Positions 517-3,167 are shown, counted from the first letter of the stretch. The stretch: 5,039 nucleotides of DNA from a virus (IMGVR_UViG_2724679238_000013), one strand, 5' to 3'. Numbers and translations: made by a program. The notes: generated by a model from the letters alone, not told the origin.

Positions 517-1193
517 CACCGGGCATTATCCTGCAGCGTACCGGGATCGACGTGAGAGCTGTCGAACAGGGGGATGATGCGTGGCACAAATTACGGCTCG
601 GCGTCATTACAGCTTCAGAAGTTCACAACGTGATAGCAAAACCCCGATCCGGAAAGAAATGGCCTGACATGAAAATGTCCTACTTCCACACCCTGCTTGC
701 TGAGGTTTGCACCGGTGTGGCTCCGGAAGTTAATGCTAAGGCGCTGGCCTGGGGAAAACAGTACGAGAACGACGCCAGAACCCTGTTTGAATTCACTTCC
801 GGCGTGAATGTTACTGAATCCCCGATCATCTATCGCGACGAAAGTATGCGCACCGCCTGCTCTCCCGATGGTTTATGCAGTGACGGCAATGGCCTTGAGC
901 TGAAATGCCCGTTTACCTCCCGGGATTTCATGAAGTTCCGGCTCGGTGGTTTCGAGGCCATAAAGTCGGCTTACATGGCCCAGGTGCAGTACAGCATGTG
1001 GGTGACGCGAAAAGATGCCTGGTACTTTGCCAACTATGACCCGCGAATGAAGCGTGAAGGCCTGCATTATGTCGTGGTTGAGCGGGATGAAAAGTACATA
1101 GCGAGTTTTGACGAGATGGTGCCGGAGTTCATCGAAAAAATGGACGAGGCACTGGCTGAAATTGGTTTTGTATTTGGGGAGCAATGGCGATGA
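513..1193 (+). CDS. exo: Lambda exonuclease (Red-alpha, 5'-3' dsDNA exonuclease), 226 aa
   Basis: The 226-aa translation ([37 protein letters not shown]...[11 protein letters not shown]) is recognised as near-identical to lambda Exo, and the length equals lambda Exo. The start is coupled to the bet stop by an ATGA overlap. Confidence 0.95.
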
Positions 1194-1372
1194 AGCATCC
1201 TCACGATAATATCCGGGTAGGCGCGATAACTTTCGTCTACTCCGTTACAAAGCGAGGCTGGGTATTTCCCGGCCTTTCTGTTATCCGAAATCCACTGAAA
1301 GCATAGCGGCTGGCTGAAGAGATAAATAATAAACGAGGGACTGTATGCACAAAGCATCTCCTGTTGAATTAA
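1190..1372 (+). pseudogene. orf60a-like small ORF coupled to the exo stop, interrupted by an in-frame amber codon (TAG at 1304-1306); 38 codons before the stop and 21 after
   Basis: ATG at 1190 overlaps the exo stop (ATGA), the arrangement I recall for lambda orf60a. The frame reads [38 protein letters not shown], then TAG, then RLAEEINNKRGTVCTKHLLLN before TAA at 1370-1372. Total span is 60 codons and the 3' end overlaps the next ORF by 28 nt, matching the lambda orf60a/orf63 geometry as I remember it. Not in the ORF track because each piece is short. Confidence 0.4.
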
Positions 1373-1536
1373 GAACGAGTATCGGGATGGCACATAGCCT
1401 CGCTCAAATTGGAGTCAGGTTTGTGCCAATACCAGTAGAAACAGACGAAGAATTTCATACGTTAGCCACATCCCTTTCACAAAAGCTGGAAATGATGGCG
1501 GCGAAAGCAGAAGCAAACGAGAGAGACCCGGCATGA
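1345..1536 (+). CDS. Hypothetical small phage protein, 63 aa (lambda Orf63-like by size and position)
   Basis: ATG-to-stop ORF of 63 aa with GAGGGA four nt upstream of the ATG. Same strand and operon as exo. Length and overlap with the orf60a-like frame fit lambda orf63. Function unknown. Confidence 0.5.
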   Translation: MHKASPVELRTSIGMAHSLAQIGVRFVPIPVETDEEFHTLATSLSQKLEMMAAKAEANERDPA

Positions 1537-1616
1537 CAACAACAGAATGCATTTTTCTGGCAGCAGGCTTCATATTCTGTGTGCTTATGCTTGCCGACAT
1601 GGGACTTGTTCAATGA
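1533..1616 (+). CDS. Candidate 27-aa hydrophobic single-TM micro-protein (MTTTECIFLAAGFIFCVLMLADMGLVQ)
   Basis: The ATG at 1533 overlaps the stop of the upstream ORF (ATGA, 1533-1536) and its own stop overlaps the next ATG (ATGA, 1613-1616). A purine-rich GAGAGAG lies about 8 nt upstream. The peptide has a roughly 20-residue hydrophobic core. Below the size cutoff of the ORF track. The alternative is that this DNA is the N-terminal extension of the 1547 frame. Confidence 0.3.
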   Translation: MTTTECIFLAAGFIFCVLMLADMGLVQ

Positions 1617-1828
1617 CACCTCAGCAGGAAAACGCCCTTCGCAGCATTGCCCGTCAGGCTAATTCTGAAATCAAAAAAGCCAGACAGCAGTTTCCGGATA
1701 AAAACGTCGATGACATTTGCCGTAGCGTACTGAAGAAGCACCGCGAAACGGTAACGCTGATGGGATTCACACCGACTCATTTAAGTCTGGCGATCGGCAT
1801 GTTAAACGGCGTCTTTAAGGAGCGATGA
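1613..1828 (+). CDS. Hypothetical phage protein, 71 aa (MTPQQENALRSIARQANSEIKK...); alternative start at 1547 would give 93 aa
   Basis: Open frame ending at TGA 1826-1828. The ATG at 1613 is coupled by ATGA to the preceding small ORF. The 1547 ATG has no Shine-Dalgarno sequence and would add a Cys/His/Arg-rich extension that looks non-coding. Confidence 0.5.
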   Translation: MTPQQENALRSIARQANSEIKKARQQFPDKNVDDICRSVLKKHRETVTLMGFTPTHLSLAIGMLNGVFKER

Positions 1829-1830
1829 AC

Positions 1831-1920
1831 ATGAAAAGCAAAATCATCAGGGAGCTACAGGCTCCTTTTTTATTGTTCGCATTCACCCTCAAGCGTATTA
1901 ACCAACAATTCAGGGATTAA
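1831..1920 (+). CDS. Candidate 29-aa ORF (MKSKIIRELQAPFLLFAFTLKRINQQFRD); uncertain because it contains a terminator-like hairpin
   Basis: AAGGAG at 1817-1822 sits 8 nt upstream of the ATG at 1831, an ideal spacing. The ORF ends at TAA 1918-1920, just before the next gene. It overlaps the hairpin plus T-run at 1851-1871, so either the ORF or the terminator (or both, under antitermination) may be real. Confidence 0.25.
   Translation: MKSKIIRELQAPFLLFAFTLKRINQQFRD
1851..1871 (+). terminator. Intrinsic terminator-like hairpin: GGAGC-tacag-GCTCC followed by TTTTTT
   Basis: A 5-bp GC-rich stem (1851-1855 pairing with 1861-1865) with a 5-nt loop, immediately followed by a T6 run (1866-1871) on the + strand. 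It lies just after the stop of the 1613-1828 gene. No T-run follows the hairpin on the - strand. The stem is short, so efficiency is uncertain; the position is consistent with a tL-type terminator read through under N antitermination. Confidence 0.4.
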
Positions 1921-2750: not shown

Positions 2751-3097
2751 TTAATCGAACCAAACTGGAGCACATCCTCGAGTATGCCAGGCAGCAGAGG
2801 CGCTTTGGCCAGCTTTGTAAAATTCTGCCAGGAGATATGGTTGAAATCGTGGAGATTGCCATGCGTAAGACTGGCAACTCTCCGGTAAGTCCGGGTGGTT
2901 GGATAAGCTGTAGTGAGCGAATGCCCGCTCAAGATGATTGGATTTTAATTTATTCAAAGCACGGTGAGTATATGGCAGGACAGGTACAAGAGGAATACGT
3001 GGAGTTGAGCGACGGCACTTTATCGTGGTTAGGGAACGCCTTGTACTGGATGCTGCTACCAGAACCGCCGCAGGGAGTGAATGATGAATTGGCCTGA
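2747..3097 (+). CDS. Hypothetical phage protein, 116 aa, with a DUF551-like motif (GGWISCSERMPAQDDWILIY)
   Basis: ATG at 2747 overlaps the upstream stop (ATGA), with AGGGAG 7 nt upstream. The W-I-S-x-x-E-R-M-P motif followed by a hydrophobic strand resembles DUF551 prophage proteins, from memory. Confidence 0.5.
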   Translation: MINRTKLEHILEYARQQRRFGQLCKILPGDMVEIVEIAMRKTGNSPVSPGGWISCSERMPAQDDWILIYSKHGEYMAGQVQEEYVELSDGTLSWLGNALYWMLLPEPPQGVNDELA

Positions 3098-3167
3098 AGC
3101 ATTCACCGCTGTAGGAGTTGCAATCGCGGTGGCATTTATTCTGTATTCGCTTTTCCGCTGGGGATAA
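3084..3167 (+). CDS. Candidate 27-aa single-TM micro-protein (MNWPEAFTAVGVAIAVAFILYSLFRWG)
   Basis: ATG at 3084 with AGGGAG (3072-3077) 6 nt upstream. It overlaps the last 14 nt of the upstream gene and ends 4 nt before the next gene's ATG. The peptide has a short polar N-terminus, a roughly 19-residue hydrophobic helix and an aromatic/basic C-terminus (FRWG). Below the ORF-track cutoff. Confidence 0.3.
   Translation: MNWPEAFTAVGVAIAVAFILYSLFRWG

Follow-up and report, generated by a model that had tools for sequence, protein, structure and literature searches.

Between the genes orf63 and orf61 of lambda-like phages lies a short stretch of DNA that some annotations leave empty and others assign to the beginning of the downstream gene, which raises the question of whether it holds a gene of its own. 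This question was addressed here in a stretch of 5,039 nucleotides (nt) from the virus IMGVR_UViG_2724679238_000013, hereafter the window, which was read in the direction of transcription and corresponds to the early leftward (pL) "exo-xis" region of a prophage of the lambda/Shiga-toxin (Stx) type. The element at issue is an open reading frame (ORF) of 27 codons plus stop at positions 1533-1616, hereafter the micro-ORF, which shares its nucleotides with the N-terminal part of a longer model of 93 amino acids (aa) in another frame. The most probable answer, to which a probability of roughly 0.6 can be given, is that the micro-ORF is a real gene, encoding a hydrophobic and probably membrane-inserted peptide that would be translated by reinitiation after orf63, with the ribosomes being passed on to a 71-aa gene downstream. 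The argument turns on seven features:

1345-1536, plus strand: orf63 homologue (DUF1382), 63 aa, taken from the ORF list, Pfam DUF1382 E=2.6e-30.
1519-1526, plus strand: Shine-Dalgarno-like element GAGAGAGA, weak to moderate, 6 nt before the micro-ORF ATG.
1533-1616, plus strand: micro-ORF, 27 codons and a stop, ATG at 1533-1535 and TGA at 1614-1616.
1533-1536, plus strand: ATGA read from the sequence, joining the orf63 stop to the micro-ORF start.
1547-1612, plus strand: N-terminal extension of the 93-aa model, 22 codons, MHFSGSRLHILCAYACRHGTCS, judged non-coding in that frame.
1613-1616, plus strand: ATGA read from the sequence, joining the micro-ORF stop to the start of the 71-aa orf61-type gene.
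1613-1828, plus strand: orf61-type gene, 71 aa (MTPQQENALRS...), in the preferred start model.

The ORF delineated in a preliminary description of the window is present in full, and its translation is MTTTECIFLAAGFIFCVLMLADMGLVQ (27 aa). The two overlaps claimed there are also found, i.e., on the upstream side the TGA of the orf63 homologue (1534-1536), which is the upstream gene of the coupled chain, shares four bases with the micro-ORF ATG, and on the downstream side the ATG at 1613-1615 overlaps the micro-ORF TGA in the same manner. At both ends of the micro-ORF, a stop thus overlaps the next start on the same strand, as in coupled genes, and such RTGA junctions are the usual type in the operon of the window, where they occur at 513, 1190, 1533, 1613, 1825, 2145, and 2747. 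The rival 93-aa ORF likewise exists (1547-1828) and, as had been stated, its ATG has no Shine-Dalgarno (SD) sequence, with an anti-SD duplex energy of -1.7 kcal/mol compared to -5.1 kcal/mol for ATG1533 and -3.9 kcal/mol for ATG1613. Well-served starts in the same window reach -7 to -8.4 kcal/mol, so that ATG1533 and ATG1613 both rank as weak, and a weak independent initiation signal at the downstream start, a further trait of coupled genes, is found at both junctions.

Under the favoured explanation, ribosomes ending orf63 at UGA 1534-1536 would restart at the overlapping AUG 1533 with the aid of a modest GAGAG-type SD, and those reaching UGA 1614-1616 would restart at AUG 1613, the presumed true start of the 71-aa orf61-type protein, where only a weak GGGA would be at hand. 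The micro-ORF would then have a dual role, namely (i) the production of its own peptide, and (ii) the relay of ribosomes to the next gene. As for the peptide, it would most likely sit in the inner membrane as a single helix, whatever its cellular target might be.

The peptide consists essentially of a single hydrophobic stretch (about residues 6-26), long enough to cross a membrane, with only two charged residues, namely E5 and D22, and neither Lys nor Arg. With a Kyte-Doolittle mean of 2.33, its best 19-mer comes third in hydrophobicity when all 162 stop-to-stop segments of the window are ranked over the six frames. Such hydrophobicity is not random, being equalled by 1 in 20,000 random stop-free 27-aa peptides of the base composition of the window. 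A hydrophobic segment of some 19 residues or more with predicted insertion, as in single-pass membrane proteins, is present, with a Hessa energy that is borderline (sum of +0.3 kcal/mol). Given the lack of Lys and Arg and the presence of two acidic residues, the topology of the peptide is not predictable by the positive-inside rule. The 27-aa peptide had no Pfam hit, and its best matches were at E=0.68 in PHROG and at E=0.034 in NCBIfam, below the cutoff of the latter family; tblastn retrieved nothing beyond the lambda/Stx module, the best outside hit being at E=5, and literature searches with the peptide sequence and related terms found no description. Members of 428 aa in the 90% identity cluster of the peptide were discarded as a clustering artefact, the one examined (P0083) being an unrelated glycosyltransferase-like protein. 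A role of the region as structured RNA was considered and rejected, since the RNA of 1500-1660 folds less stably than its shuffled versions do (z=+2.1 for the minimum free energy) and has no Rfam match.

Conservation was assessed over 236 related loci, collected from IMG/VR, GTDB, and annotated phage and E. coli records (some contigs being fetched twice) and projected onto the window coordinates, of which 217 contain the complete 1533-1616 segment. All homologues of the micro-ORF lie in Escherichia-type lambdoid elements with at least 90% DNA identity. The start ATG is present in 217/217 loci, and the 27 codons and stop are intact in all but one, where Q27 is replaced by a stop, leaving a peptide one codon shorter and a TAATG junction. 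The overlaps are otherwise kept throughout the 217 loci, the second ATGA reading GTGA in 14 of them. Not a single indel was found within 1533-1616 in these loci, whereas the A-run of the neighbouring gene (1672-1678) does have some. In phage records, the 1300-1900 stretch was retrieved by megablast at 95-99.5% identity from 179 entries, including 933W, VT1/VT2-Sakai, phi24B, 434, 21, and lambda, and the micro-ORF is present in 175, among them lambda, 434, 21, and the Stx phages 933W and phi24B; by tblastn, the peptide is 100% identical in 138 of these 175, compared to a DNA identity of mostly 95-99% over the wider 1345-1828 query. In bacteria, the 161-nt segment around the micro-ORF occurs in 3144/5426 complete E. 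coli genomes, and a scan of GTDB with the 71-aa protein gave Escherichia only, besides evident contamination of unrelated genomes by lambda DNA.

Two mosaic variants of the locus bear on the borders of the genes. The gene upstream of the micro-ORF is orf63 in most loci. In about 24 loci, a Dam-type methylase stands in its place; homology to the window begins at the micro-ORF ATG, the ATGA overlap is kept, and the last dam codons supply a GGGAGG 5 nt before this ATG (-10.3 kcal/mol). One such locus (L013) encodes a methylase of 185 aa at 367-924, and the two parts of the mosaic join at the start codon of the micro-ORF. In about ten further loci, exemplified by L089, an unrelated 250-aa gene precedes the 71-aa gene, with neither micro-ORF nor extension, and the protein, which belongs to a cluster of 344 members (P0024), starts at the 1613-equivalent ATG with a GAGG of its own (-5.6 kcal/mol). 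Judged from these sequences, the micro-ORF accompanies the 71-aa gene in two independent upstream contexts, yet is not obligatory. Another locus (L232), with a junction inside the micro-ORF, proved to be a rearranged prophage remnant and was set aside as uninformative.

The distribution of substitutions bears directly on the choice of frame. The ratio of non-synonymous to synonymous polymorphism (pN/pS) is 0.27 in the micro-ORF frame, i.e., the same as in the 71-aa gene (0.27), compared to 0.69 in orf63 and 0.76 in the frame of the 93-aa extension, and the distinct changes comprise 15 synonymous and 13 non-synonymous in the former frame against 6 and 15 in the latter. When the same mutation types were re-placed at random positions over 1537-1612 and scored in six frames, the micro-ORF frame showed 14/27 synonymous changes for 8.1 expected (P=0.013), while the 93-aa frame showed no excess (7/27 for 7.5 expected). 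The preliminary description had pointed to the codon-position pattern in homologues as the means of telling the two frames apart, and this pattern favours the 1533 frame, as changes present in three or more loci, considered here as common, are synonymous in 10/14 cases in that frame (binomial P=0.0017) and in 2/14 in the 93-aa frame; homologues showing the opposite, i.e., a disrupted 1533 frame with the 1547 frame kept, are absent from the 217 loci. Purifying selection is thus seen in the micro-ORF frame but not in the 93-aa frame. As an illustration, the allele of the window and an allele found among the complete E. coli genomes sampled (L237) differ at five sites of the ORF, all of them third codon positions and silent, and the same five differences alter the 93-aa frame at three residues (R>G, T>A, and M>V). 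The variants of the peptide, i.e., T3A/I, E5K, F8L, G12V, A21S/V, D22N/G, and V26I/A, are conservative, and its core FIFCVLML is invariant in 28 haplotypes.

These data weigh heavily on the 93-aa model, according to which translation begins at ATG1547, giving a product with an N-terminal extension rich in Cys and His, while the 1533 ORF would be an alternative-frame by-product. This 93-aa ORF is indeed the one called, as "similar to lambda orf61", in 933W, phi24B, Stx2 phage I, and RefSeq NC_000924, PHROG 303 spans all of its 93 residues, and both ATG1547 and the open frame are found in 217/217 loci. As ATG1547 lies within micro-ORF codons E5-C6, its conservation does not constitute independent evidence. 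Against this model stand the missing SD, as well as the pattern of evolution of 1547-1612, which does not behave as coding in the 1547 frame, with a high pN/pS, few synonymous changes among the common ones, and replacements such as G/R, T/A, and H/Y. The extension is moreover not found wherever the protein is, since the P0024 variant follows an unrelated gene and begins at the ATG equivalent to 1613. In a single-sequence AlphaFold2 model of the 93-aa form, the mean predicted local distance difference test score (pLDDT) is 40 over residues 1-10 and 53 over residues 11-20, versus 73-92 over residues 21-70, and is high only from about residue 23, in agreement with published modelling of the protein from which residues 1-23 were left out (PMC8614690). 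Altogether, a start at ATG1547 is considered very unlikely. The L089-type protein starting at the 1613-equivalent ATG shows that 1613 is a sufficient start and that the functional downstream protein is the 71-aa form, and it is also 71 aa, from the 1613-equivalent ATG or GTG, that are called by CPT in phages 434 and 21 and by the RefSeq Prokaryotic Genome Annotation Pipeline (PGAP) in E. coli. The name given to this protein in RefSeq is "cell division protein ZapA"; its match to the ZapA family of Pfam, at E=0.015, scores 16 bits and falls short of the 23.8 cutoff, and a Foldseek search with the downstream protein fold retrieved nothing from the PDB at E<1. The latter search offers no lead on function, and the name looks unsupported.

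On the opposite strand, an ORF of 61 aa at 1415-1600 has third codon positions coinciding with those of the micro-ORF and could in principle be the frame under selection. It is open in both lambda and the window, and shows a synonymous excess (12/27, P=0.038) that falls below the one in the sense frame. The change 1598 C>T removes its ATG in 9/217 loci, only an unrelated 35-aa ORF remains in the Dam context, and no promoter-like site was found on either strand over 1100-2200. Between the window and lambda, its product is identical opposite the micro-ORF but differs at five residues opposite orf63 (M/I, L/F, R/H, L/S, and W/R). On account of the ATG losses, the change of identity in the Dam context, and the five residue differences opposite orf63, this candidate was rejected, and the probability left to it is very slight indeed.

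Could the micro-ORF then be a chance ORF in an untranslated spacer of 76 nt, its conservation merely reflecting the low overall divergence of a recently spread module? The close relatedness of the homologues would fit, as would the absence of annotation of this gap in current RefSeq and the density of distinct variants, which at 0.36 per nt is no lower than in flanking genes (0.23-0.26). It would leave unaccounted for, though, that the variants are periodic by codon in exactly the 1533 frame, that indels are absent from 217 loci, that start and stop match the boundaries of both neighbours exactly, that the encoded segment is so hydrophobic, and that a strong SD arises ahead of it in the independent Dam context. 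A fortuitous ORF is for these reasons regarded as improbable.

A more subtle possibility is that the 27 codons are translated but kept open just to carry ribosomes from orf63 to the orf61-type start, with a functionless peptide that is degraded. The SD at ATG1613 is weak where the micro-ORF is present and better, i.e., a GAGG, in the variant without it, the operon is a chain of RTGA overlaps in which other tiny ORFs participate, the micro-ORF is dispensable in L089-type prophages, and the peptide has no flanking positive charges, all of which speak in favour of a pure relay. In such a case, amino-acid changes should be tolerated, yet pN/pS is as low as in the 71-aa gene and the common variants are mainly synonymous; nor would the invariant FIFCVLML core be expected, and the 1-in-20,000 hydrophobicity is left unexplained. 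A relay devoid of a functional peptide is consequently deemed unlikely, though it deserves some weight.

Several observations nonetheless count against a functional membrane peptide translated from the micro-ORF. (i) The additional peptides from ribosome profiling of lambda that are given for this region in a review (PMC8614690) are of 7 and 31 aa, with none of 27 aa. (ii) The predicted insertion energy is borderline and, unlike in usual small membrane proteins, no Lys or Arg is available to satisfy the positive-inside rule. (iii) ATG1547 and its open frame are as constant as the micro-ORF start. (iv) As the homologues are all Escherichia-type lambdoid and closely similar, the selection test rests on 27 distinct changes. 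(v) The consensus micro-ORF peptide is found in 14/28 haplotypes and the consensus 93-aa extension in 11/28, which suggests that rare variants alone discriminate poorly between the two frames. (vi) The antisense ORF shares the third codon positions of the micro-ORF and some of its synonymous excess. (vii) The L089-type variant carries the 71-aa gene without the micro-ORF.

When compared with known systems, the micro-ORF peptide resembles the small (<50 aa) inner-membrane proteins of E. coli with a single helix, e.g., KdpF, AcrZ, MgtS, and CydX, whose genes are routinely missed by gene callers. It has a similar length and one hydrophobic stretch of transmembrane length, but differs from them in having no Lys or Arg flanking the helix, in being phage-borne and confined to one lambdoid module, and in showing no Pfam, NCBIfam, or PHROG family similarity. 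Type I toxins, such as Ibs, ShoB, TisB, DinQ, Ldr, and Hok, are also hydrophobic and of 19-50 aa, DinQ having precisely 27 aa, and they are expressed from their own promoter with an antisense RNA or a structured 5' untranslated region. In contrast, the micro-ORF is embedded in a polycistronic operon by its ATGA overlaps and has no sequence similarity to these toxins; neither a promoter-like site on either strand over 1100-2200 nor an Rfam match or a stable RNA structure was found. Considering this embedding together with the lack of promoter-like sites and of any antisense or leader RNA signal, the micro-ORF is not a type I toxin locus. As regards translation, stop/start coupling through AUGA or UGAUG is known from trpB-trpA and from many phage operons; the four-base AUGA at both ends of the micro-ORF and the weak SD at the downstream start conform to this type, from which the locus departs in that a whole 27-codon ORF is inserted between two junctions, forming a putative double relay. 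The junctions of orf63, the micro-ORF, and the 71-aa gene would as such offer a simple case of double stop/start coupling. Overall, the micro-ORF would be one further, modest member of a kind already known among small phage genes and not a new class of system.

Close precedents are found in the very same operon, as ribosome profiling of lambda is reported to have revealed two micro-ORFs in the exo-xis region, namely orf2311 (7 aa) and orf2313 (31 aa) (Liu et al. 2013, cited in PMC8614690). Like them, the micro-ORF of the window belongs to the same conserved block, is very short, and is wedged between known genes. The window itself contains, in the same chain as the micro-ORF and joined by ATGA or TAATG overlaps, ORFs of 31 aa (1825-1920) and 7 aa (1920-1943), which match orf2313 and orf2311 by size and are probably their counterparts; the 27-aa peptide is far more hydrophobic than the product of this 31-aa ORF. 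The 27-aa ORF differs from orf2311 and orf2313 in its absence from the peptides given in PMC8614690, and its position in lambda, wholly inside annotated orf61, may be the reason why it was never scored as new.

How the micro-ORF came to be hidden in lambda becomes apparent when the orf61 annotation is examined. Lambda PaPa carries one extra A in the A-run corresponding to 1672-1678 of the window, i.e., A7 versus A6 in natural relatives, and annotated orf61 (NC_001416, 30839-31024, complement; 1040-1225, minus strand, in our locus L005) is as a result a frameshifted composite, made up of (i) an upstream ATG with no equivalent in the window, (ii) the extension in the 93-aa frame, (iii) 22 true residues, and (iv) an out-of-frame tail. 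The annotated upstream start is spurious. The micro-ORF of lambda (30925-31008, complement) is intact and lies entirely within this annotated orf61, in another frame. Every locus with the extra A looks like laboratory lambda, and among these loci are contigs that contaminate unrelated genomes in GTDB.

In other annotations, the micro-ORF is simply passed over. CPT, for phages 434 and 21, and current PGAP leave the 76-nt gap where it lies unannotated, and it is missing from the reference annotations examined for the phages named above and for E. coli genomes. The peptide is nevertheless in nr and UniRef as an automated "hypothetical protein", e.g., ETI79567.1 and A0A0A2SGE8, and was found on 981 contigs. 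If the favoured explanation holds, the gene model of lambda and Stx phages would have to be corrected to orf63, followed by the 27-aa peptide and then by the 71-aa protein, which would make three products amenable to testing.

The annotation also has a bearing on published genetics, as the 61-aa and 93-aa annotations served as the basis for the "delta-orf61" mutants made in lambda and phi24B (PMC6213356). To judge by the coordinates, these deletions would also take out all or most of the micro-ORF, in which case their phenotypes are not cleanly assignable to the 71-aa protein and may partly reflect loss of the peptide, the 71-aa gene of lambda PaPa being already frameshifted. Since in this strain the 71-aa gene is broken and the micro-ORF is intact inside the deleted interval, it could even be envisaged that the 27-aa peptide, instead of the 71-aa protein, underlies at least part of the "orf61" phenotypes, i.e., on the lysis-lysogeny decision and prophage induction. 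This last proposal is speculative and rather doubtful; were it true, the peptide would be a new early-expressed and membrane-active host-modulating factor of lambdoid and Shiga-toxin phages.

In 933W and other phages, the counterpart of the 1345-1536 gene is described as similar to lambda orf63. Around the coupled chain, the window is occupied by the following genes:

Up to 516: end of bet.
513-1193: exo.
1184/1190-1306: orf60a (DUF1317), truncated in the window.
1825-1920, plus strand: 31-aa ORF, the next link of the chain, its ATG overlapping the orf61-type stop as ATGA.
1920-1943: 7-aa ORF (MEDGRHH), overlapping the stop of the 31-aa ORF as TAATG.
1927-2148: orf73 (TraR/DksA zinc finger).
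Further downstream: ea22-like genes, xis, and int.

The truncation of orf60a is due to a nonsense change, CAG>TAG, at 1304-1306, which is private to the window, as the other loci with this position have CAG in 175/175 cases; the product has 38-40 aa, where 60-62 aa are normal, and orf60a no longer overlaps the start of orf63 as it usually does. Inside orf60a, a consensus scan alone pointed to a terminator-like hairpin followed by a T-rich tract on the plus strand at 1254-1276. The 31-aa ORF, which is conserved, contains a terminator-like hairpin (1849-1867) with a T-run after it; its overlap with the orf61-type stop reads GTGA in many relatives.

Further along the same strand and operon, a second hydrophobic micro-ORF of 27 aa, MNWPEAFTAVGVAIAVAFILYSLFRWG, is present at 3084-3167. 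Direct comparison revealed no sequence similarity between the peptides of the two micro-ORFs. Both have 27 aa, the fifth of which is acidic and precedes a hydrophobic stretch, and the second differs in overlapping the preceding gene, an ORF of 116 aa, by 14 nt rather than 4 nt and in having an Arg near its C-terminus. It holds the most hydrophobic 19-mer of the window, has a good SD (-7.7 kcal/mol), and its peptide is likewise present in nr as a hypothetical protein.

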